This document shows, one piece after another, positions 1 through 35,861 of a DNA stretch of 36,526 nt. Position numbers and translations under genes: made by a program. Below the pieces are notes generated by a model. The model made no database searches. It saw only the letters and a program-made list of their open reading frames with translations, and had not been told where the DNA came from. The DNA is from a virus (Duplodnaviria; Heunggongvirae; Uroviricota; Caudoviricetes). The stretch is from IMG/VR virus record IMGVR_UViG_2531839145_000010; one strand, written 5' to 3'. How positions within the stretch are numbered: the stretch's first letter is position 1; the number at the start of each line of letters is the position of its first letter.

Positions 1-1053
1 TTACGGGGTAATGCCAACCGCTGCCGCCACTTTGTCGCCACTTGGCAATGTTGCCAGAGGATTGAAACGGAGCGCCGTTTCCAGATGATCCGGTGCCAGA
101 TGTGCGTAACGCATAGTCATTTTTATATCGTGGTGTCCGAGAATTTTTTGTAAGGCCAGGATGTTTCCACCCGACATCATGAAGTGCGCCGCAAAAGTAT
201 GGCGCAGAACGTGTGTCAGTTGACCGCGAGGGAGCACGATAGACGTTTTTTCCATCACGGATAAAAATTGAAAATAGCAGTCTGTGAAGAAATTGAACCC
301 ATCAAGCGCCATGATCTCTTCGTAAAGCTCTTTACTGATAGGGATGCTTCTGTTTTTCTTCCCCTTCGTTCTTACAAAGGTAATTCGGTATTTGGTCACC
401 TGTGAGCGGGTAAGATTTACGGCTTCTCGCCAGCGTGCGCCTGTGCTTAAGCATATCTTGACTACCAGAGCCAGAATTGGGTCCTGACGTTTGCAATCAG
501 CCAGTAATTCAACAATCTGCTCATGGGTAAGCCATGCCATCTCTTTTTCTGCGATGGTGAATTTTCGCATGTTCTCCAGTGGGTTCGGATACGACCATTC
601 GCCCAGACGGGATAGTTCGCTAAAAACACTACTTAGATAGCTTTGCTCCAGGTTAATGGTGACCGGGCTTGCTCCTTTCTTCCATTTCTCGCTGAAGTAG
701 ATCTCGCCTGTCAGGCGTTTATCTCGATAGTGGGCAAACATTTTAGAGGTGAGATCGGTTGCAAGAGGATTGCCTAGAGCGTCAACCATCAGCAGCAATT
801 TGTCATAGACATGCTGTCCAGCAGTCAGAGATTTACCATGTAGTTTGAACCATAGCTCAACCACGTCTTTCAGGGTTCGACGATCCACTGATTCGCCCAG
901 CCAGGGCTTTGATTCGGTTTCTTCCATCGTGTGACGCTCAAAAGCCAGAGCTTCGCCTTTGGTGGCGAATTGTTTACGCACACGACGCCCACTTCGTCCG
1001 GCGGGGTAACATTCGCAAAGCCATTTCCCTGTGGTGAGTTTTCGTACTGCCAT
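1..1053 (-). CDS. int: Tyrosine integrase (P2 Int-like)
   Basis: Track ORF 1..1209; N-terminus MAVRKLTTGKW... aligns from memory with P2 Int MAIKKLDDGRY..., so start placed at ATG 1051-1053; recombinase motifs LSTGARWREA, HVLRHTFAAH, MRYAHL (catalytic Tyr). Confidence 0.9.
   Translation of the reverse strand: MAVRKLTTGKWLCECYPAGRSGRRVRKQFATKGEALAFERHTMEETESKPWLGESVDRRTLKDVVELWFKLHGKSLTAGQHVYDKLLLMVDALGNPLATDLTSKMFAHYRDKRLTGEIYFSEKWKKGASPVTINLEQSYLSSVFSELSRLGEWSYPNPLENMRKFTIAEKEMAWLTHEQIVELLADCKRQDPILALVVKICLSTGARWREAVNLTRSQVTKYRITFVRTKGKKNRSIPISKELYEEIMALDGFNFFTDCYFQFLSVMEKTSIVLPRGQLTHVLRHTFAAHFMMSGGNILALQKILGHHDIKMTMRYAHLAPDHLETALRFNPLATLPSGDKVAAAVGITP
19..40. repeat. Left copy of prophage attachment-site core (attL), 22 bp, overlapping the 3' end of int
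   Basis: cgctgccgccaCtttgtcgcca at 19-40 recurs at 33672-33693 with one mismatch; the copies flank the whole phage gene set. Confidence 0.6.
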
Positions 1054-8476: not shown

Positions 8477-9160
8477 CTATGATTGAAGAGCAATCTTTCT
8501 CAACGTATCAAATACAATTTTTGTAAAATTATTTTCATTTTTAACGTCAATGTAAGCAAGAGCGTTATTAGTAATTTTAAGTTTACCAGAATACTCTAAT
8601 GAATTAACGGAGCAAACAAGTTTGTCAATTCTTATTTTCTTCCCCTCTAATTCTTCTTTATAATATTTTCTAAGGTCACTGCTGCCAATTATTTGCATTT
8701 TAGCTGTAGCGTAATCAGCGACTCTAACTCTAGAAATATCCAGTTGTGTTAGATTTATATTCACATTTGAAGATATTTCGTTGAGCCAGTCCATCGGATT
8801 TATATCAATCTCTTCTAGGCTAACGCCTAAGCCAAGATTTCTGACTAAGGCCTGTGAAAACGGTTTTAAAGTTCGCGGAGGGTTAGTAAGTTGCATTATA
8901 GGAAGAGTATCTAAAGATACACTGAAATTAGTAGTGCGGTATTCGACTCTTTCTACGATAGTTTCGCTTCCGTCAAAATTAGAAACTTGATCGTGATAAA
9001 TAATACGCTCAACAAAGCGTCCATGTGCAGAATCATGACGTATTTTATCAAAAATAAACCCTTTCCCCTTATCCTCGGTAAAAGAATCAAGAGAAAGACG
9101 TTTAACAGCTTTTTCAAATTCAAGCCGTATGTTTAATTTGAGCCACTTAACCTTCTTCAT
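8477..9160 (-). CDS. Cargo operon gene 3: hypothetical protein (227 aa), no recognised domain
   Basis: Start overlaps upstream gene by 14 nt; AT-rich; no motifs recognised by eye. Confidence 0.7.
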   Translation of the reverse strand: MKKVKWLKLNIRLEFEKAVKRLSLDSFTEDKGKGFIFDKIRHDSAHGRFVERIIYHDQVSNFDGSETIVERVEYRTTNFSVSLDTLPIMQLTNPPRTLKPFSQALVRNLGLGVSLEEIDINPMDWLNEISSNVNINLTQLDISRVRVADYATAKMQIIGSSDLRKYYKEELEGKKIRIDKLVCSVNSLEYSGKLKITNNALAYIDVKNENNFTKIVFDTLRKIALQS

Positions 9161-10226
9161 GTTCGTTTACCTCTGGTCCTATTATTATATTATAGGCATT
9201 TTCAGCGGCTGACTCAATTAATTCACTAATATGTCTTTTCTCTTGTGCCGTTGCCGCACGAATTGTCACATTGAATCCGTCTTCTTTTTGATTATTTATC
9301 CCTTTAATTTGATAGGCAAAGTCACAGCAATTTTCAGAGTCTTTGAAAAATGCTTCAACGTTAATTCTGTCACCAACTCCACTTGTCGGTTTTGAAGACC
9401 ATGCGATACGGCCTATATAATAACCTTTCTCGTGTAGTTGAGAAAATATAGGCGAACTATTAACACCTTCACCATTCAAAACAGCTTTCTTGACGAATCC
9501 GGTATCGATTGTTTCTTCTTTGTCTTCATCTTCACTTGCGTCAATACTGCGATTTAATTCTACTTTCGTTACATCATCAGTCTCATAACCATGTAGTCCA
9601 TTCATTAACTCTTGAAAGAACTGGCTTCGCAATGTAGGGTCAGTGATTGCCATTAAAGAAATTTCAAAACGTTCAATAGGCTCAGATTTGATTTTAGACA
9701 GCTCGTTTTGCAGACCCTCAATAACTTTTTTTGCCTCAGGATTCTGTGGCATACGTACTTCAACCTTGTCAACACCAGGGCGAAGTTCTATTATGACATT
9801 CCGTTTATCTATTTGACGCAGAGCGGTTTTAGATAAGTCTATTTCTTCATAGTTATATTCTACTGTCAGAGAACCATCTTTTTTCGCTACGATATTCAAG
9901 CTTTGCCCTTTACTGGGTGAACATGTTTTTTTCAATGCTTCAGCTGCGCTCTTTAATTCGGCCTGATTTGTTGTGGTCTGAAAACTCACACTGGTAATGC
10001 TTTCTCTTGGATCATATGTTTTGACCATCTTTTTTATATGCTCTAATTCATTAAAGCCATGGGGGAGTTTTGATATTTCCTCGATAAGTATTTCCTTGTC
10101 GAGTTCTGGTGATAAAAAAACACCTCTATTTAGCAATAATTCATGTAATTTTGCAGGGGTTATTCTTTTATGATGCAAAGCATCATAAATATTCTTGTCA
10201 GTCGCAAAGTATAATTTTTTAGCCAT
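9147..10226 (-). CDS. Cargo operon gene 2: hypothetical protein (359 aa), highly charged
   Basis: ATG overlaps upstream stop by 1 nt (TAATG); acidic stretch DASEDEDKEETID; no catalytic motif recognised. Confidence 0.7.
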   Translation of the reverse strand: MAKKLYFATDKNIYDALHHKRITPAKLHELLLNRGVFLSPELDKEILIEEISKLPHGFNELEHIKKMVKTYDPRESITSVSFQTTTNQAELKSAAEALKKTCSPSKGQSLNIVAKKDGSLTVEYNYEEIDLSKTALRQIDKRNVIIELRPGVDKVEVRMPQNPEAKKVIEGLQNELSKIKSEPIERFEISLMAITDPTLRSQFFQELMNGLHGYETDDVTKVELNRSIDASEDEDKEETIDTGFVKKAVLNGEGVNSSPIFSQLHEKGYYIGRIAWSSKPTSGVGDRINVEAFFKDSENCCDFAYQIKGINNQKEDGFNVTIRAATAQEKRHISELIESAAENAYNIIIGPEVNEHEEG

Positions 10227-11227
10227 TATCGTTGCTCCATCCCAATTTTTTCAAGATTATATTCAACTACAACTTTGTCTGTCTTTTCGAAGTCAAATTT
10301 AAGAAAAAGTCTTTCATCCTCACCTAACAGCCAGTCTGTACTGTATTTCTTTTTAGCTTTTTCAAAATGATGAATAGCATTTTCATTTGGATGGATATGA
10401 CAATGACGTAATAAAATTGGTTTGCCTTCAGTGAGTATCTGATAAGTTGATAGCATGTCAAAAAAGTACACAAATTCATCTAATGAATCACCGGGTTGAT
10501 TGTAATAAACAACATACCCTTCTGGGATATCTTTTTTAAGCCAGCTAAAAGCCTCATGTTTAATTATGATGTATGGCGATGTTAATAATTCAATTGTCGC
10601 AGGTGTTGTTTGGTTGATGGGGTGTTTTATTCTTGTTAAAGAAAGATCTGGGTAATAGTAAGTAAACTTATCAGGCTGTGGAAGTTTTCCAGAGCCTATT
10701 AATTTGGTTATGTCAGAGGATATATTTATTAAATCAGATATTTTATAGGGGTCAAGTAAGTGTAGTTTTATGTTTGGAGGACAATTTATAACGGAATGAT
10801 CTAATTTTTTTGTAATATTTTCATAGAAATCTTTATCATATAGATTATCATGATTATACAAAAATAACAAACCTCTTACATTATAACCTAAAGAATCATC
10901 ATGAACGTATTTCAATCGCCACTCTTCACTTACATTCGCACACTCGGTAGCTAAAGCAAGTGAGGTTAAGGCACCTTCGACCATTTTTTTACCAATAGAT
11001 CCCACCGCATAGCTCTTTAGATCTGTATTGAGATAGACCATTTCCTCTTCATAAGGGTCTGTGTAGAAAAATACAACATCACTTGGATGGGTTTTCTTGG
11101 AATGTACCTCTTGGCAACATTCCCAATTCATGTCCGCTCTAGCGGCGCGATCCCATTTGAATACAGAGAAAATATCATCAGAAATTTTACCTGCGACTCG
11201 TTGTATAGCCGAAGTTTCTCCACCCAT
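10226..11227 (-). CDS. Cargo operon gene 1: hypothetical protein (333 aa), His-rich C-terminal motif
   Basis: GGAG RBS about 10 nt upstream of ATG 11225-11227; His cluster HCHIHPNENAIHH; AT-rich; occupies the P2 old/tin position. Confidence 0.7.
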   Translation of the reverse strand: MGGETSAIQRVAGKISDDIFSVFKWDRAARADMNWECCQEVHSKKTHPSDVVFFYTDPYEEEMVYLNTDLKSYAVGSIGKKMVEGALTSLALATECANVSEEWRLKYVHDDSLGYNVRGLLFLYNHDNLYDKDFYENITKKLDHSVINCPPNIKLHLLDPYKISDLINISSDITKLIGSGKLPQPDKFTYYYPDLSLTRIKHPINQTTPATIELLTSPYIIIKHEAFSWLKKDIPEGYVVYYNQPGDSLDEFVYFFDMLSTYQILTEGKPILLRHCHIHPNENAIHHFEKAKKKYSTDWLLGEDERLFLKFDFEKTDKVVVEYNLEKIGMEQR

Positions 11228-11982: not shown

Positions 11983-13011
11983 CTAATACATATAAGGTTC
12001 GAAGCGAATTATTTCTTCGCCCAGCCAGTCGTTAAGCTCCTGCAGTCGCTTCTGTAACGGCATCAGTTCGTTGCGGACAAAGACGCGGCTGGCTTTTTCA
12101 ACATCACCAAATCCCCCAACATTACTCGGCATGATCCCCATCATTTGTGGCGGTACACGGTGCGCAGCCATCATGTCATCGCGGCTGACATTTTTGATAT
12201 TCAGAAACTCATCCTTCGCCGCGACTTCTGACAACGGGATGATCTGAAGCCCGTCCTTTTTGCCGTTAGGCGAGTACATAAACAGGTTGCGGAAGTTGCC
12301 AGGGCCTTTGGCGCTTTTCATCGCATTGCGGAGGTTGTTCACATCCTCTTGGTTCTGCGCGGCATCGGTCATGTACATGATGAAGCCTGCATGGCTGCCG
12401 TTGATGTAATACTTACGGCGGAACAGCGTGGCAGACTCGTTGAGCAGGGCGGATGGAATGGCAGAAAGATAGCCTGGCAGGCCGTAGATCTCCTGGTTGA
12501 TGTCCGGTTCCATCAGATGAAAAATGCTGCCTTTCGTGAACTGATACGGCTGGGTTGTCATACCGTATTGCACAAACCAGTAGGTATCCAGGTCTAACCC
12601 ACGTCGGGTGTATTTTGCCAGCGCAGGCTCAAGGGCGATAACTTCACCGAATCGGTTCGTGCGTTTCTCCAGGTAGGCGTTACCAAATACCAGATAGTCC
12701 TGCACAAAACGCGAAAAAGCCTGTTGGCTGAGCAGCGGGTGAGGGATGTAGGTGCTGGTCAAAATGTTGCATTTCACCGCAATCGGTGAGCTGTGATGCA
12801 CGGCGGCGCGGAAGGTTCGTGCCAGTCCGTCAAAGCTGACGGGCGGCTCATACCAGCGATCCATCTGTACGCATTCCACATAGTCCAGCAGTTCGCGGCG
12901 GTCCAGAACAGGAACGGGATCACCGAAGCTGAATGCTTCGGCTGAAGTCTGGCTTTTATGCTGGTTCTGGTTCGTCGACGCAGCGCGGTTCTTCTTACTC
13001 TTTCCCATCAA
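11983..13011 (-). CDS. Q: Portal protein (P2 gpQ-like)
   Basis: 342 aa; size and position next to terminase in the leftward Q-P operon; recalled similarity to P2 Q. Confidence 0.85.
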   Translation of the reverse strand: MMGKSKKNRAASTNQNQHKSQTSAEAFSFGDPVPVLDRRELLDYVECVQMDRWYEPPVSFDGLARTFRAAVHHSSPIAVKCNILTSTYIPHPLLSQQAFSRFVQDYLVFGNAYLEKRTNRFGEVIALEPALAKYTRRGLDLDTYWFVQYGMTTQPYQFTKGSIFHLMEPDINQEIYGLPGYLSAIPSALLNESATLFRRKYYINGSHAGFIMYMTDAAQNQEDVNNLRNAMKSAKGPGNFRNLFMYSPNGKKDGLQIIPLSEVAAKDEFLNIKNVSRDDMMAAHRVPPQMMGIMPSNVGGFGDVEKASRVFVRNELMPLQKRLQELNDWLGEEIIRFEPYMY

Positions 13012-14774
13012 AAAATCTCCACAATATTGCTGGCATTGGCGGACTCGCCCTGCAGCGGTTCGTTAAACAGTGCGTGCATTGTTGCCCAGGCCAGATCGGC
13101 ATGGCTGGCTTCTTCGCTGCGGCTGGCTTCATAGGTCGGGCGGTTGCCGCTGGCGGTGGTGGCGCGACGGATTGCCATGAATGACTGCGCAATGTCGGTG
13201 TGTCCGGCGTCAAATTCCAGGCGGCGGTGACTGATAATGTCGTAGGCCTTGAGTACCAGGGCGTTTTTAACGTTGGGGTTGTAGACAAACTCCCGGACGG
13301 CAGGAAAAAACGCTTTCACGTTCTCGTAAACCCCGTGACCGACGCCGGTCGAGTCGATGCCGATATAGGTCACGTTATACTGTTCGGTCAGTTTTTTGAT
13401 GGCGTCAGCCTGGGCGCGGAAGTCCATTCCGCGCCACTGGTGACGCTCAAGAATGCGGAACTTACCGCCCGGCACGGCTGGCGGTGCCACCACCACGCAT
13501 CCGGCGCTGTCGCCGTTCTGCGTACCTTTTGCCGGGTCATAACCGATCCACACTTCGCGCCAGCCAAACGGGCGCAGGGCCAGTGCATGAAAGTCGGTCC
13601 AGACTTCCCAACTGTCCACCATGCACGCCTGCAGCTCGCTGAGCGGGAACACGGACGCGAGATCGTCCACGAACTCACACATCAGCAGGTTCTGGTATTC
13701 GTCCGGGCTGTATTCCATGCGCAACTGGTCAAGGTCGAACAGGTTACAGCCGCCGCGCACCGCATCTTCTACGGTGACTATCTGGCGGTATTGCCCGTCT
13801 GCGCACAGCAGGCCGGGGGCCAGATTGCTGTGGGACAGGTCGATGTCCACCTTGTCGGCTTTGTTGCGTCCACGGTTGAACAGCGCACCGGACCAGAACG
13901 GATAAGCACTGTGGGTCAGGCTGGATGGCGTGGAAAAATAGGTTTGTCGCCATTTTTTGTGAATAGCCATACCGGAAGCCACTTTGCGCAGCTCCTGGAA
14001 TTTCGGTATCCAGAAATATTCATCCAGATACAGGTTGCCGTGGTAACTCTGGGCAGTGCGGGCATTGGTGCCGAGGAAATACAGTGTGGCCCCGTTGGGA
14101 AGCACCATCGGATCGCCTTTCAGCTCCACTTCCACTTCTTTGGCGAAGTCGATGATGTACTGCTTAAAGACGTGCGCCTGTGCCTTACTGGCAGAAAGGA
14201 AAATCTGGTTACGTCCGGTTAGCAGGGCGTCAATCAGGGCTTCACGGGCAAAATAGAAGGTCGCGCCGATCTGGCGTGACTTCAGCAGGTTGCGGATGCG
14301 GTTGGTTTTTCCGGCTTCCCACCAGTGACGCTGGTAGTTGAACATGGAGGAATGGAAGATTTCTTCCAGCTTCTCAATCTGTTCATCGGTGAAAACATTC
14401 TTTTCAGGCTGACGGCGCGGGCCTTTGTTGCGGTTGGCGACGTTAGGGTTTAAATCGGCTTCGTTGCCGCCATTGTTAAACTTGCCGATCCGCGCGTGGC
14501 GCTCCGACTGGCGCGCCAGCAGATCAATTTCTTTGAAATCTTTCCCTTCTTTGTGCTCCTTCATAATGAGCTGGCAGTAACGTGCGGCGGTGGTGAGCTG
14601 CATCTGATCCAGCGGCCCATAGTCACCCCACTTGTCGCGTTTTTTCCAGCTGTGAACGGTTGCAACTTTCTCGCCCAGCATTTCAGCAATGCGGGCTACG
14701 CGGTATCCCTGAAAGTACAGCAGCATGGCCTGCCGACGGGGATCGAGATCTGCGGGTGTCAGTGTGGTGTTCAT
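13008..14774 (-). CDS. P: Terminase large (ATPase) subunit (P2 gpP-like)
   Basis: 588 aa; divergent from the O-N-M-L operon; recalled similarity to P2 P. Confidence 0.85.
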   Translation of the reverse strand: MNTTLTPADLDPRRQAMLLYFQGYRVARIAEMLGEKVATVHSWKKRDKWGDYGPLDQMQLTTAARYCQLIMKEHKEGKDFKEIDLLARQSERHARIGKFNNGGNEADLNPNVANRNKGPRRQPEKNVFTDEQIEKLEEIFHSSMFNYQRHWWEAGKTNRIRNLLKSRQIGATFYFAREALIDALLTGRNQIFLSASKAQAHVFKQYIIDFAKEVEVELKGDPMVLPNGATLYFLGTNARTAQSYHGNLYLDEYFWIPKFQELRKVASGMAIHKKWRQTYFSTPSSLTHSAYPFWSGALFNRGRNKADKVDIDLSHSNLAPGLLCADGQYRQIVTVEDAVRGGCNLFDLDQLRMEYSPDEYQNLLMCEFVDDLASVFPLSELQACMVDSWEVWTDFHALALRPFGWREVWIGYDPAKGTQNGDSAGCVVVAPPAVPGGKFRILERHQWRGMDFRAQADAIKKLTEQYNVTYIGIDSTGVGHGVYENVKAFFPAVREFVYNPNVKNALVLKAYDIISHRRLEFDAGHTDIAQSFMAIRRATTASGNRPTYEASRSEEASHADLAWATMHALFNEPLQGESANASNIVEIF

Positions 14775-14916: not shown

Positions 14917-15749
14917 ATGACAGTGAAAGCAAAGCGTTTTCGCATCGGGGTGGAAGGTGCCACCACCGACGGACGCGAAATCCAGCGTGAATGGCTGGAA
15001 CAGATGGCAGCCAGCTACAACCCGGCGGTGTATACCGCGCTGATTAACCTTGAGCACATCAAGTCTTATCTGCCGGACAGCACCTTTAACCGCTACGGCA
15101 AGGTGACGGCGCTGTTTGCTGAAGAAATCACGGAAGGTCCGCTGGCAGGCAAGATGGCGCTGTATGCCGACGTTGAGCCAACAGAGTCCCTGGTGGAGCT
15201 GGTGAAAAAAGCCAGAAATTATTCACCTCTATGGAAGTCAGCCCAAAGTTTGCTGATACGGGCAAAGCCTACCTGGTCGGGCTGGCTGCCACTGATGACC
15301 CTGCCAGTCTGGGCACTGAAATGCTGACATTCAGCGCCAGTGCAGCCCATAACCCGCTGGCAAACCGCAAGCAGAATCCCGCCAATCTCTTTACCGCCGC
15401 AGAGGAAACGGTGATCGAACTGGAAGAAATCCAGGAGGACAAGCCGTCCCTGTTTGCCCGCGTCACGGCGCTGTTCACCAAAAAAGAGCAGTCCGACGAT
15501 GCCCGGTTCTCTGATGTGCATAAGGCCGTGGAGCTGGTCGCCACTGAGCAGCAGAACCTGAGCGCACGGACCGAAAAATCCCTGTCTGAGCAGGAAGAAC
15601 GTCTGTCTGAGCTGGAGACTGCCCTGCAGGCACAGCAGACCGCCTTTAACGAACTGGTGAATAAGCTGAGTCATGAAGACAGCCGCCAGGACTACCGCCA
15701 GTGTGCAACAGGCGGTAACGCCCCCGCTGACACTCTGACCAATTGCTGA
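14917..15749 (+). pseudogene. O: Capsid scaffolding protein (P2 gpO-like), split by a 1-nt frameshift in an A6 run
   Basis: Track ORFs 14917..15327 and 15231..15749 match the N- and C-terminal halves of P2 gpO in two frames; one extra A at 15205-15210 would restore a gapless alignment. Confidence 0.7.
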
Positions 15750-15765
15750 TGGAGCACAAAACCCG

Positions 15766-16824
15766 ATGAAGAAGAATACCCGCTTTGCTTTTAACGCTTA
15801 CCTGCAGCAGCTGGCGCGTCTGAACGGTGTGGCAGTTGAAGAACTGTCCAGCAAGTTCACCGTAGAGCCGTCCGTGCAGCAGACATTGGAAGACCAGATC
15901 CAGCAGTCCGCCGCTTTCCTGACGCTGATTAACGTCACGCCAGTGACTGAGCAGTCCGGTCAGCTGCTGGGGTTGGGAGTTGGCAGCACCATTGCCGGAA
16001 CCACTGATACCACCGCGAAAGAGCGTGAACCTGTCGATCCGACGCTGATGGTCGATGTGGAATATAAATGCGAGCAGACCAACTTTGACACGGTGCTGAC
16101 CTACGCGAAGCTGGACCTGTGGGCGAAGTTTCAGGATTTTCAGGTGCGTATCCGTGACGCCATCGTGAAACGTCAGGCACTGGACCGCATCATGATCGGC
16201 TTTAACGGCGTGAAGCGTGCGAAAACCTCCAACCGTAGCGAAAACCCGCTACTGCAGGATGTGAATAAAGGCTGGCTGCAGAAAATCCGTGAGGATGCAC
16301 CGGATCACGTCATGGGCAGCACCACCACGGGCGGTGAAACCACACCGGGCGCAGTGAAAGTCGGGAAAGGTGGCGAATATGCCAACCTGGACGCCGTGGT
16401 GATGGATGCCGTCAATGAGCTTATCGACGTGGTCTACCAGGACGATGACGATCTGGTGGTGATTTGCGGTCGTGAACTGCTGTCTGACAAGTATTTCCCG
16501 CTGGTCAACAAAGAGCAGGAAAACAGTGAAAAACTGGCTGCCGATATGATCATCAGCCAGAAACGCATGGGGGGCCTGCAGGCCGTGCGTGCGCCGTTCT
16601 TCCCGCCGAATGCACTGCTGATTACCCGTCTGGATAACCTGTCCATCTACTGGCAGGAAGACACCCGCCGCCGTTCAGTTATCGACAACCCGAAACGTGA
16701 CCGGATTGAAAACTTTGAATCCGTTAACGAAGCCTATGTGGTTGAGGACTACCGCTGTGCCGCACTGGTGGAAAACATCCAGATTGGCGACTTCAGCGCC
16801 GCCGCAGCAGAAACCGGAGCGTAA
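15766..16824 (+). CDS. N: Major capsid protein (P2 gpN-like)
   Basis: 352 aa; FNAYL...ELNG, GFNGVKRA, GKGG, VEDY and GDFS motifs match recalled P2 gpN. Confidence 0.9.
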   Translation: MKKNTRFAFNAYLQQLARLNGVAVEELSSKFTVEPSVQQTLEDQIQQSAAFLTLINVTPVTEQSGQLLGLGVGSTIAGTTDTTAKEREPVDPTLMVDVEYKCEQTNFDTVLTYAKLDLWAKFQDFQVRIRDAIVKRQALDRIMIGFNGVKRAKTSNRSENPLLQDVNKGWLQKIREDAPDHVMGSTTTGGETTPGAVKVGKGGEYANLDAVVMDAVNELIDVVYQDDDDLVVICGRELLSDKYFPLVNKEQENSEKLAADMIISQKRMGGLQAVRAPFFPPNALLITRLDNLSIYWQEDTRRRSVIDNPKRDRIENFESVNEAYVVEDYRCAALVENIQIGDFSAAAAETGA

Positions 16825-20749: not shown

Positions 20750-21616
20750 TTACTTTTTACTGATAAATGGATTCCTATCAATCCATGAGTCCCAGTTTAT
20801 ATAATTGTCATCAAATCCTATGAATTTCATTAGTACAAGTGGCACCAGTAAATTCAAATTTGATGAGTAATCTTGAATTTCAATTTTGCCATCTGAGTTT
20901 TTTTCATCAAGATAGGCAATGTATTTACCATTGTGGAACAGCGAGTGACGGAGTTTGCAGTAATGCATAATGTTTCTTTGAGCTAATGTATGTCCTGTTT
21001 TTTCGACATTAAAACCATATTCTTTTAAAACCTGAGTGATTATTTGTGGCGTTTTGGCAGGGGAGTAGTCATTTTTAATAAATCTGCAAAGTGCTTCTAG
21101 TGCCGAGAATAATAAATAATATCTGACGTCGATATAATTTATTGAGTCGCGGAAAGCTAGCATTGATTTAAAAAATGATGTTCTAAAGGCATCTTGTTTT
21201 AGCATGGCTTTACTATTTAGTTTTTCCATGGCTAAGCAAATAAAATTTTCTCGGCTGTTTGGTGCAAAATAATCTTCCATGATGATAATGCCAGCACCCT
21301 TATCTCTTTTTTTGTCAAGCTTTTTGGGTAGGGATGGTTTGAAATTGAAAGGGGTTTCATCATTTTCAAGTTCTCCTGAAATGATTACATTTTTTTGTTC
21401 AATAAAACTAAGAACTGCTTGTAAATCAAAAATAAGCTGCTGTTGAGTGGCGTAGTTATTCGAGTTTGGTTTGAAAAAACCAGTGAGGATGTACCTATCA
21501 TTAGCCCAGCCATTTTTTTTTAACTCACTCCATGAACTGAAAATAGGAGTTAACTCACCACCGTCAAATGTGATTTTTTTAGTGAAATTAAATCCATAAA
21601 TTGCGATTTGTGTCAT
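20750..21616 (-). CDS. AT-rich cargo protein (289 aa) with possible HEPN-like R-x4-H motif
   Basis: ATG 21614-21616 with taagg RBS preferred over the track start at 21664; motif KLRHSLFHNG; sits in the S-V variable locus (P2 orf30 position) on the opposite strand. Confidence 0.65.
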   Translation of the reverse strand: MTQIAIYGFNFTKKITFDGGELTPIFSSWSELKKNGWANDRYILTGFFKPNSNNYATQQQLIFDLQAVLSFIEQKNVIISGELENDETPFNFKPSLPKKLDKKRDKGAGIIIMEDYFAPNSRENFICLAMEKLNSKAMLKQDAFRTSFFKSMLAFRDSINYIDVRYYLLFSALEALCRFIKNDYSPAKTPQIITQVLKEYGFNVEKTGHTLAQRNIMHYCKLRHSLFHNGKYIAYLDEKNSDGKIEIQDYSSNLNLLVPLVLMKFIGFDDNYINWDSWIDRNPFISKK

Positions 21617-21645
21617 CTTAAATACCTTAGAAATTGTTTCTCTTT

Positions 21646-21663
21646 TGTGTGGTTCTCCATACA
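21646..21663. promoter_or_regulatory. Ogr/Delta-type late-activator site (TGT-N12-ACA) upstream of V
   Basis: TGTgtggttctccatACA, sharing TGTGTGGTT with the site at 14821; spacing to the V start codon is shorter than at the other two sites. Confidence 0.4.
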
Positions 21664-21711
21664 TACGCTCTGTATTACATCACTCTACCCGGTTGTGCAA
21701 GGATCGCTCTC

Positions 21712-26524: not shown

Positions 26525-27685
26525 ATGGCTCAGGATTACCACCACGGAGTGCGCGTTGTTGAAGTCAACGAAGGCACCCGATCCATTACCACGGTGAGCA
26601 CCGCCATCGTGGGCATGGTCTGCACGGGCGATGATGCCGATGCAAAAATGTTTCCTTTTAATAAACCCGTTCTGATCACTGACGTGCTGACCGCCAGTGG
26701 TAAAGCGGGTGAGTCCGGTACGCTGGCCCGTTCGCTGGACGCCATCGCTGATCAGGCAAAACCCGTGACCGTTGTTGTGCGAGTGCCGCAGGGTGAAACG
26801 GAAGAAGAAACTACGACCAATATCATCGGCGCAGTGACCGCTGAAGGTAAAAAAACAGGCATGAAAGCCCTGTTATCTGCTCAGACACAGCTCGGCGTTA
26901 AACCGCGCATTCTCGGCGTGCCAGGTCACGATAACAAAGCCGTTGCGACTGAGCTGCTGAGTGTGGCGCAAAGCCTGCGTGGGTTTGCCTACCTGTCAGC
27001 ATATGGCTGCAAGACGGTGCAGGAGGCGATCACTTACCGTGAAAACTTCAGCCAGCGTGAAGGGATGCTGATCTGGCCGGATTTTATCAGCTGGGACACG
27101 GTGCTGAATGCCGAAGCAACGGCATACGCCACCGCGCGTGCGCTTGGCCTGCGCGCCAAAATTGACGAGCAGACCGGATGGCACAAAAGCCTGTCCAACG
27201 TGGGCGTGAACGGTGTCACCGGAATTTCTGCTGATGTGTTCTGGGATCTGCAGGACCCGGCAACCGATGCAGGTCTGCTTAACCAGAACGACGTCACCAC
27301 CCTTATCCGCAAGGACGGTTTCCGCTTCTGGGGTTCCCGCTGTCTGAGTGATGATCCGCTCTTTGCCTTCGAAAACTACACCCGCACGGCGCAGGTGCTG
27401 ACGGACACGATGGCAGAAGCGCACATGTGGGCGGTGGACAAACCGCTTAACCCGTCGCTGGCCCGCGACATTATCGAAGGTATCCGCGCCAAAATGCGCA
27501 GTCTGGTCAGCCAGGGCTATCTCATTGGTGGTGATTGCTGGCTGGATGAGTCGGTGAACGACAAAGACACGCTGAAAGCCGGAAAACTCACCATCGACTA
27601 TGACTACACGCCAGTGCCGCCACTTGAAAACCTGATGCTGCGTCAGCGCATCACCGATCAGTACCTGGTGAATTTCGCCAGCTAG
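26525..27685 (+). CDS. FI: Tail sheath protein (FI)
   Basis: 386 aa; first gene of the FI-FII-E-T-U-D operon. Confidence 0.85.
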
Positions 27686-28276: not shown

Positions 28277-28579
28277 ATGAGCGATAAGCAGACTGAAAAG
28301 ACCATTCAACTGGATACCCCTATCAAGCGCGGTAAAACAGAAATTACCGAAATTGTGCTGCGTAAACCGCAGTCCGGTGCGCTGCGCGGTACACGCCTGC
28401 AGGCCATTATGGATATGGATGTGAACGCGATGATGACCGTGATCCCCCGCATCTCCAGTCCGGCACTGACTGCACAGGAAATTGCAGAGATGGACCCGGC
28501 AGATCTCACTGCCATGTCGGTTGAGGTTGTCACTTTTTTGTTGAAGAAGTCGGTGCTTGCCGGTTTACCGACAGCCTGA
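28277..28579 (+). CDS. E: Tail assembly chaperone E
   Basis: 100 aa immediately upstream of the tape-measure gene; contains the slippery site near its 3' end. Confidence 0.8.
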   Translation: MSDKQTEKTIQLDTPIKRGKTEITEIVLRKPQSGALRGTRLQAIMDMDVNAMMTVIPRISSPALTAQEIAEMDPADLTAMSVEVVTFLLKKSVLAGLPTA

Positions 28580-28713
28580 CGGTTGACGATCTGGTGGCTG
28601 ATATCGCCACCATCTTTCACTGGCCGCCATCCGTTACTGACGTTATGCCGCTGACCGAAGTGCTGGAATGGCGGTATAAAGCGATTCAGAGAAGCGGGGC
28701 CAACGATGAGTGA
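28277..28713 (+). CDS. E': Tail assembly chaperone E+E' (-1 programmed frameshift product)
   Basis: Slippery heptamer T_TTT_TTG at 28534-28540 in the correct register; the -1 frame stays open to TGA 28711-28713. Confidence 0.65.
28534..28540 (+). promoter_or_regulatory. -1 ribosomal frameshift slippery heptamer TTTTTTG
   Basis: Read directly from sequence; same heptamer as I recall for the P2 E/E' site. Confidence 0.65.
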
Positions 28714-33452: not shown

Positions 33453-33671
33453 ATGATGATTTGCCCACTGTGTGGAAGTGCCGCCCATACTCGCAGCAGT
33501 TTTCAGGTATCTTCATTGACCAAAGAGCGTTACAACCAGTGCCAGAACATTAACTGCAGCCATACTTTTGTTACCCATGAAACTTTTGTTCGTTCGATTG
33601 CAACGCCAAAAGAGTCAAATCCGGTTCAGCCGCATCCAATGAAATCAGGACAGGTGGCGCTCTCTCTTTGA
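33453..33671 (+). CDS. ogr: Ogr/Delta-family zinc-finger late transcription activator
   Basis: CPLCGSAAHTRSS...KERYNQCQNINCSHTF matches recalled P2 Ogr (CPLCQHAAHARTS...KERYHQCQNVNCSATF). Confidence 0.85.
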   Translation: MMICPLCGSAAHTRSSFQVSSLTKERYNQCQNINCSHTFVTHETFVRSIATPKESNPVQPHPMKSGQVALSL

Positions 33672-33906: not shown

Positions 33907-35592
33907 TTATCCTAATCCTGGCCATACCATGACGATGATTGTCCCTGCCAGCGTCAGCAGGACGTTGGCGATTGCATAGGTGCCCGCATAGCCCAGCGCC
34001 GGGATGTTACTGCGAGCTGTATCACTGATGATCTCCATTGCCGGCGCGCAGGTGCGTGCGCCCATCATTGCGCCGAACAACAGTGCGCGGTTCATTCGCA
34101 ATACATAAGCACCGAACAAGAAACAGATAACCACTGGCACAAGACTGACAATCAATCCGGCAATCAACATCTGACCGCCAATCGCGCCCAGGCCGTTATT
34201 AATACCGCTACCGGCGCTCAGACCAACGCCTGCCATAAACACCATTAAGCCGAACTCTTTCACCATGCTTAATGCACCCTGCGGAATGTAACCGAAGGTC
34301 GGGTGGTTAGCGCGCATAAATCCCAGCATAATTCCGGCGAATAACAACCCGGCAGCGTTCCCCATGCCGAAACTGAATGTGCTGAACTGGAAGGTGATCA
34401 TCCCGATCATCAGCCCAATAACAAAGAAGGCGCAGAATGCCAGCAAGTCAGTGACCTGGCTGTGAATCGAGATAAAGCCGATGCGATCGGCGATGGTTTT
34501 TACGCGACGGGCATCGCCGCTGACTTGTAAAACGTCACCTTTGTTAAGCACGACGTTGTCATCTATCGGCATCTCAATCTGGCTACGAATGACGCGGTTA
34601 AGGAAGCAACCGTGATCGGTCAACTTCAGTTGTGCGAGACGTTTGCCAACGGCGTTATGGTTTTTAACGACCACTTCTTCAGTGACAATACGCATGTCGA
34701 GAAGGTCACGATCGAAAACTTCTTTGCCGTTACGGAAGCTGGGATCGAGTCGGGCGTGGGCGTCGGGATAGCCTACCAACGCTATTTCATCGCCCATTTG
34801 TAGCACAGCATCACCGTCTGGATTCGCCAGAATCCCGTTACGTCGAATACGTTCAATGTAGCAGCCAGTTTGTCGATAAATACCCAGTTCACGCAGATTT
34901 TTGCCGTCGGTCCAGGCCACCAGCTCCGGGCCGACGCGGTAGGCTCGGATCACCGGTAAATAAACCTTACGGTTGGCATCAGTGTCCAGGCCACGTTCGC
35001 GGGCGATTTGCTGGGCGCTGGTCTGTAAGTCCTGATGCTGCAATTTCGGCAAGTAACGCGCACCAACAATCAAACTCACCAGACCGATTAAATAGGTTAA
35101 GGCATACCCGAGGCTCAGATTATCCAGTGCCAGTGAGAGCTGCCTGCTTTCCATGCCGGAATGACGCAGTGTATCGCCAGCACCGACCAGAACCGGTGTT
35201 GACGTCATAGAGCCAGCTAACATACCGGCCGTCAGGCCAATATCCCAGCCAAACAGCTTACCTAACCCTAAGGCGATCACCAGCGCACTGCCAACCATCA
35301 CCAGTGCTAACATTAGGTAATTTTTCCCATCGCGAAAAAAAATGGAAAAAAAGTTCGGTCCGGCTTCGACCCCGACGCAGAAAATAAACAGCATAAAGCC
35401 AAGATTAAGCGCGTCGGTGTTAATGCTGAAATGTTGTTGGCCTAATAACAGCGATACGACTAAAACGCCAATGGAATTACCCAGTTGGATCGAACCAAGT
35501 CGTAATTTCCCGAGACATAGCCCAAGCGCGAGGACCACAAATAATAACAGAATGTAATTCCCATTTAACAATTCGGCGACGTTTATATTCAC
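33907..35592 (-). CDS. ybjL: AAE-family putative transporter YbjL (host gene)
   Basis: 561-aa polytopic membrane protein; recognised from memory as E. coli YbjL; outside the att repeats. Confidence 0.8.
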
Positions 35593-35861
35593 GGAGGCTA
35601 ACTTCTTGTTTACTAGTAAGCTGTTGAAAGAAATGGTAATTTACGATAATGTTTTTTACCAGAATTCAGGGCGCAGATTCATTCAGCGCACCTAAACGAT
35701 AGTAAAGTAACAATATATTTTACTAGTGTAATCACATTAGGTATCAACGGCTATATGAATTGCGTTGGCCTATATTAGCATGGAATGCGAAGCGGCTTTA
35801 TCTTACTGAACGCCACACTGGCGAAAAATGTGTTCGATAGACGCAGTGTCAGGAGGAACGA

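Follow-up and report, generated by a model that had tools for sequence, protein, structure and literature searches.

The window, by which we mean the whole stretch of 36,526 nt that was analysed, holds a complete P2-like prophage, with an integrase gene at the left end, the ogr gene at 33453-33668 and then the host genes ybjL and ybjM, the prophage being integrated beside ybjL in the E. coli chromosome. Because its first base already lies within the prophage, the window includes neither the left attachment site nor the host flank on that side; the integrase frame (1-1053, minus strand) has its stop codon at bases 1-3 and ends ...ATLPSGDKVAAAVGITP, where a relative at the same locus ends ...ATLEV. 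The subject of this report is the stretch 14917-15749 (plus strand, 833 nt), a homologue of gpO, the capsid scaffold and maturation serine protease of P2. Searching the window with the proteins of an intact relative (L008; tblastn), we found gpO between divergent terminase large subunit and major capsid genes, the same slot that P2 gpO occupies in the divergent Q-P / O-N-M-L head cluster. The features of the locus are as follows.

13011-14774, minus strand: gene P (tblastn, L008 proteins)
14917-15749, plus strand: gpO homologue, a predicted pseudogene through a 1-nt deletion (834-nt relatives, single gap column, split PF05929 match)
14917-15327, plus strand: 5' ORF of 136 aa, residues 1-98 being authentic N-terminal protease domain and 99-136 out-of-frame junk (Pfam profile positions 2-96)
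15055-15057, plus strand: His codon of the conserved NLEH motif, aligned with His48 of P2 gpO, in frame 0 and upstream of the break
15205-15210, plus strand: A6 run, of the same length as in intact relatives (alignment)
15211, plus strand: surviving G of the ancestral GG, the deletion point (six relatives; intact sister L021 has the extra G)
15210-15749, plus strand: remainder of gpO, in the -1 frame only, to TLTNC* (Pfam profile positions 102-268)
15228-15230, plus strand: catalytic Ser codon of the TSME motif, equivalent to Ser107 of P2 gpO, in the -1 frame and downstream of the break (invariant alignment column)
15231-15749, plus strand: longest ATG-started ORF in the -1 remainder, 172 aa
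15321-15749, plus strand: 142-aa C-terminal ORF as called in public assemblies, a putative product; its ATG (15321-15323) precedes and its frame overlaps the frame-0 stop (15325-15327)
15702-15704, plus strand: TGT, encoding Cys, in place of the CGT (Arg) of relatives; it marks the lineage (alignment column 787)
15766-16821, plus strand: gene N (tblastn, L008 proteins)

Reading from the ATG at 14917, frame 0 encodes genuine gpO residues up to ...LVELVKK, followed by 38 unrelated residues and a TGA at 15325-15327, and the -1 frame carries gpO onward to its usual C-terminus (...TLTNC*, stop at 15749). A first-pass annotation of this DNA had put gpO out of frame at the A6 run, and that is what we find there. 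In all 40 phage and all 40 E. coli relatives listed the gene is 834 nt long, one more than the 833 nt of the window, and one inserted base yields a single gpO ORF of 277 aa. The 5' piece matches Pfam family PF05929 over profile positions 2-96 (E 1e-44) and the 3' piece over positions 102-268 (E 1.5e-55), while the repaired protein gives one unbroken, full-length match (positions 2-268 of 268, 378 bits). Because the two pieces match consecutive parts of the profile and repair turns them into one match, the frame break is real and lies far beyond a chance pattern of ORFs. Members of the family carry protease and scaffold on one chain, in an uninterrupted ORF of about 277-284 codons; the frame of the window gene is split after codon 98. 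From these comparisons we class it as a pseudogene of the GPO family rather than a functional member. It is also the sole prophage gene for which the tblastn search with the L008 proteins needed two reading frames.

The gpO of intact relatives, to which the window's gene as repaired is equivalent, shares 49% identity with its P2 counterpart; the alignment has no gap at the junction (NKAAQKVYTSMEI in P2), and both the NLEH and the TSME motifs are conserved. The codons for the catalytic serine (Ser107 in P2) and the conserved histidine (His48 in P2) are thus both present and aligned in the window; we take the NLEH histidine to be catalytic, as in the S73 peptidase family. Unlike P2 gpO, the window's gene has its frame broken after residue 98 and carries an Arg to Cys change at a basic position near the C-terminus.

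We aligned the junction of the window with those of six relatives (97-99.8% identical) and observed exactly one gap column in gpO. The relatives read AAAAAAGGCCAG (KKGQK) where the window reads AAAAAAGCCAG, one G of a GG doublet being gone; in wider context the relatives have GTGAAAAAAGGCCAG (V K K G Q) and the window GTGAAAAAAGCCAG. Since the A6 run is common to six of six relatives and the window, the alignment identifies the missing base as one G of the GG immediately 3' of an unchanged A run, not as an A. The earlier proposal that one added A gives a gapless alignment with P2 gpO is correct in that the frame is restored and no gap is needed; it misplaces the lost base, however, as the A run is unchanged and an added A yields KKSQK where the family has KKGQK. 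In the collection of 15 billion proteins that we searched, no KKSQK (A7) protein occurs on either allele background. Reads with seven A had been named as the state in which the gene would be intact; that premise was wrong, the ancestral state being A6 followed by GG. Reversible phase variation through the A run, which we also considered, was rejected on the same absence of an A7 protein from the collection on either background.

The exact 136-aa product, including its out-of-frame tail, is found on 423 contigs and in 725 index blocks (NCBI, JGI/IMG, ENA, Logan), contig counts that are partly redundant because the same runs can recur in several sources; named carriers include E. coli KTE150 and KTE18. 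A protein look-up is blind to the event in the DNA, and carriers were therefore checked at the nucleotide level. The records L007 and L009/L023/L024 (GCA_902708975.2) are 100% identical to the window, the latter two loci over 20.4 kb (L023) and 21.7 kb (L024); L007, a single IMG/VR match identical over 1,048 nt, probably comes from the same genome and was not counted as independent evidence. By contrast with these carriers, 5,426 complete RefSeq E. coli genomes contain the homologous stretch at 1,022 places, none of them with the deletion and all with best 60-nt matches of 60/61, and an exact-pattern scan of the GTDB species-representative genomes for the deleted junction returned nothing.

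As a linkage control we used the rare C to T change at 15702 (Arg to Cys), 490 nt downstream of the deletion. We counted contigs for the exact 142-aa fragment, which gene callers report when the gene is broken, and for intact 277-aa gpO. On the Cys background the fragment has 411 contigs and the intact protein 51; on the Arg background the figures are 5 and at least 1000, although the sequence around the junction is identical on the two backgrounds. Because of that identity, an error driven by local context cannot explain the linkage to Cys. The deletion is inherited by descent within a Cys-marked prophage lineage.

A 90% cluster of the 136-aa products has 97 members. We had considered this cluster as proof of one widespread allele and dropped it, since at least one other background (the P0005 group) reaches the same protein by A6 to A5. 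This second route is seen in P2-like prophages with GmrSD cargo (L010-L019), whose O allele has 28 mismatches, reads GTGAAAAAGGCCAG and has the same KKARNYS… tail; several of these assemblies contain many split genes and extra homopolymer contractions, but no such signs are seen in L012 and L013. In P2-like O genes generally, the A6GG spot may repeatedly attract indels, artefacts or both.

The deletion can be placed in time by comparison with intact sisters (for example CP163666.1, here L021; Cys O allele P0047), which share with the window the cargo genes, the tail fibre, a truncated sheath allele and the Cys marker, and which differ in having kept GG, in encoding the full 277-aa gpO and in being about 8 times rarer in the collection. 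Over 20.8 kb, L021 differs from the window only by the G, one SNP (at 11004) and two homopolymer lengths. A further locus, L025 (CP164262.1), retains GG at the junction and is free of SNPs over 19.5 kb of prophage, though it shows six homopolymer contractions typical of long-read error; its ybjL-ybjM flank (19700-21653 of L025, against 34648-35697 of the window) differs by six SNPs and hence represents a different host background. Essentially the same phage, with its O junction unbroken, is thus present in a second host lineage, and the near-identity of the intact sister shows that the O deletion is very recent. They also suggest that the still-intact form of the phage recently entered at least two host backgrounds.

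When we aligned about 45 prophage proteins, together with ybjL and ybjM, of an intact relative at the same site to the window, all genes other than gpO were full-length, ungapped and in a single frame; the window has 62 homopolymer runs of at least 6 bases, yet no other matched gene is frame-broken. The statement that every other structural gene looks intact is nearly right and needs one amendment. The tail sheath gene FI (26525-27685) has a CAG to TAG change at 27683, four codons before the normal stop, so that the protein has 386 aa instead of 390 and lacks the last residues QVSA. The change lies in the context CCAGG to CTAGG, the classical Dcm 5-methylcytosine hotspot. This amber is absent from 946 complete-genome records; it occurs on 425 contigs, among them intact-O assemblies (with accession numbers adjacent to those of P0047), and the 390-aa version is found on the same background on 3 contigs. 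Since the amber is also present in intact-O members, it predates the O deletion, and the order of events is sheath amber and Arg to Cys first, O deletion last.

The position of the break matters for what the gene can still make. In P2, residues 1-141 of gpO are a serine protease whose substrates are gpN, gpO and probably gpQ, the S107A variant being protease-deficient; residues 195-284 are an internal scaffold needed for large procapsids; and gpO is essential to viable P2 and P4 virions (PMC7552001). In the window, the break separates the NLEH histidine, upstream, from the Ser107 equivalent and all of the scaffold domain, which follow it in the -1 frame. With the histidine in one frame and the serine and scaffold in another, protease activity and a scaffold domain cannot be combined in any one product. 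The Arg to Cys change at 15702 falls in the scaffold domain, 16 residues from the gpO C-terminus, at a position that is basic (Lys) in P2.

These observations show that the window carries a genuine, heritable one-base gpO deletion; in the explanation that we favour, and hold to be very probable, the P2-like E. coli prophage has thereby lost head function, a loss that we infer from P2 genetics. One G of the GG after the A6 run was lost recently, in one lineage that already carried Arg to Cys and the sheath amber, and the deleted allele has been passed on to the several hundred isolates in which it is now sequenced. From the start codon of O, translation would give 98 authentic and 38 junk residues, and full-length scaffold or protease would not be made in useful amounts, although traces of full-length gpO may arise through low-level compensatory frameshifting. 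Judged by the genetics of P2, the prophage could then neither build nor mature heads, nor help P4-type satellites. The first-pass annotation had listed a genuine inactivating deletion among its readings; recurrence, linkage and the alignment of the lost G strongly support the deletion, while inactivation is what P2 genetics would predict. The other prophage genes are intact because the lesion is recent, and, given that explanation, the intactness of the rest no longer argues for retained gpO function.

Three other readings that accept the deletion have to be weighed. The first, which we consider quite improbable, is that inactivation was selected because it tames the prophage, for example because headless tails and lysis act in the manner of a tailocin or because piracy by P4-like elements is blocked, or else that the 142-aa fragment, translated by reinitiation, serves as a protease-free scaffold. 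The deleted form outnumbers the intact sister by about 8 to 1 (411 against 51 contigs; 702-725 against 93 index blocks) and the tail and lysis genes are intact, but hitch-hiking in a single successful host clone, or biased sampling, would be equally expected to produce such a ratio, the prematurely stopped sheath gene of this lineage speaks against selection for tail function, and neutral loss is the default for a prophage that is not induced. As to the fragment, its ATG and the frame-0 stop overlap (ATGCTGA). The 142-aa ORF would start 4 residues short of the position that corresponds to residue 141, where the protease domain of P2 gpO ends; it contains the scaffold domain and corresponds closely to what follows the protease in P2 gpO. 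Against a role for it, there is no Shine-Dalgarno sequence before 15321.

The second reading, very improbable in our estimation, is that recoding during expression restores the protein: a -1 ribosomal slip on G_AAA_AAA, or an extra A added by RNA polymerase, would give a functional gpO(G99S), and heads would still be made. The product would be gapless against the family whether the A-site Lys-tRNA shifted by -1 on A_AAA or the transcript carried A7, P2 has Ala at the G99 position so that the substitution might be tolerated, and all the other prophage genes are intact, an intactness for which recency accounts. The local sequence, however, offers little for such an event. Frame 0 reads GUG_AAA_AAA_GCC, which contains no X_XXY_YYZ heptamer in the incoming frame, only an A_AAA tetramer. 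Nothing structured lies 5-9 nt downstream, and the nearest strong helix is more than 20 nt away; our search for a stimulator downstream of the A run found none, the best fold having z = -1.7, within the range of shuffled sequences. A GGAG is present at 15195-15198, only 5 nt before the motif, and the spacing of the SD-like element of dnaX is longer, at about 10 nt. The two-frame arrangement is not conserved either: it occurs at 0 of the 1,022 homologous places in complete E. coli genomes, and all the phage and E. coli relatives listed are in frame.

Published frequencies agree with a weak site. Tetramers in E. coli without a stimulator give 0.147% frameshifting against a background of 0.112%, and with the IS3 pseudoknot A_AAA is the weakest of the six tetramers clearly above background, in a range of 0.26-5.6% (PMC4066793). 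Selection against transcriptional slippage becomes evident from about nine A/T (PMC1088944), and the run here has six A. Many bacterial pseudogenes with 1-nt deletions are reported to undergo compensatory frameshifting at a low level, which proteomics detected in Salmonella (PMC9122581), but a scaffold protein is required stoichiometrically, not catalytically. Slippage had been ranked the least likely reading from the start, and the weak tetramer, the lack of a stimulator and the short A run bear out its low standing.

The third reading combines parts of the other two in a 'pseudo-pseudogene', in which leaky -1 slippage or rare A7 transcripts give some gpO(G99S), reinitiation gives the C-terminal scaffold, and a few particles or headless tails result. 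Were it true, it would help to explain why the deleted form is the commoner one; we hold it to be highly improbable.

The weakest reading, that of a sequencing or assembly error over a true GG (or A7) and an intact gpO, as the first-pass annotation had allowed, starts from a break that adjoins a homopolymer, from the similar A6 to A5 frameshift on another O background in partly error-prone long-read assemblies (L010, L011, L015-L019) and from the six contractions of long-read-error kind in L025, but it is effectively excluded, without raw reads, by a lost base that is a G outside a homopolymer run of constant length, by an allele that recurs on 411-423 contigs of several sources in linkage with a SNP at a distance of 490 nt, by the lack of any A7 protein in the collection, by a local context that on the Arg background is intact on at least 1000 contigs and broken on 5, by three records (L007 and L009/L023/L024) identical to the window and by the lack of a second frame break among the matched genes of the 36.5 kb, and we give it a negligible probability.

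We therefore return to loss of gpO by a heritable deletion, and see it as ordinary early prophage decay, neither a sequencing error nor a programmed frameshift. Frameshift-inactivated morphogenesis genes in resident prophages are already well known, and both gpO fragments have been deposited as hypothetical proteins. Like the cryptic prophages of Enterobacteriaceae, the window's prophage has a single-base deletion in an essential morphogenesis gene that is inherited vertically with the host. Compared with decaying prophages it is at a very early stage: we saw only the gpO lesion, the loss of 4 codons from the sheath gene and a single missense change, and no IS insertions or large deletions. 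The G-run of HSV thymidine kinase (PMC5009743) and the pseudo-pseudogenes of Salmonella (PMC9122581) resemble the O break in that a 1-nt deletion lies by a homopolymer and a -1 shift restores the product. Unlike those cases, gpO is a structural protein needed in bulk, and its motif is weak and without a stimulator.

The useful outcomes are that a G and not an A was lost, that error is excluded by linkage, that the prophage is probably head-defective and that it has a minor second lesion in the sheath gene. For annotation, O should be recorded as a pseudogene and the prophage as probably defective in heads and in help to P4-type elements, even though predictors see a complete element. The question of homopolymer error or mutation can be solved without reads, through the linkage of an indel to a nearby rare SNP across public assemblies. 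The case also shows prophage decay at its outset: apart from a frameshift, an amber codon in a Dcm context and a missense change, the element is pristine.

The same prophage contains a frameshift site of the programmed kind. P2 makes its E/E+E' tail-chaperone products by a -1 shift, also on a homopolymeric motif in a late gene; E/E' has a canonical heptamer in the correct frame that is conserved in all P2-like phages, whereas the O break has neither. At the end of gene E (28277-28579) the window has the heptamer T_TTT_TTG in the E frame (28534-28540), and E' (28594-28710) is open in the -1 frame. This programmed frameshift is intact in the window.

Two sets of cargo genes deserve mention. An orphan ORF of 304 aa lies between the tail genes S and V (20750-21664, minus strand) and matches nothing in Pfam or PADLOC; it contains T9 at 21513-21521, that is, an A9 run in the sense strand (…ELKKNG…). 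In L021 and L025 this run has 8 bases instead of 9 and the ORF is split, and both assemblies show other homopolymer contractions. We considered phase variation of cargo genes (T9 to T8 and T7 to T6 in L021) and rejected it, long-read error being likelier given the six contractions found together in L025. Between DinI and the portal gene, at a P2 variable hotspot, lies a cargo of three genes (8480-11227, minus strand; 227, 359 and 333 aa). Scanned against Pfam, the cargo genes gave nothing at the gathering level, whereas precomputed Pfam labels on identical proteins in related loci read GAPS4b_N (weak) and PDDEXK_GAPS4. The trio matches the PADLOC candidate defence proteins Hp3, Hp2 and Hp1 over their full length (E 1e-144 to 1e-245), and on these comparisons it is this match to Hp1-3, rather than the GAPS4-type labels, that is solid.
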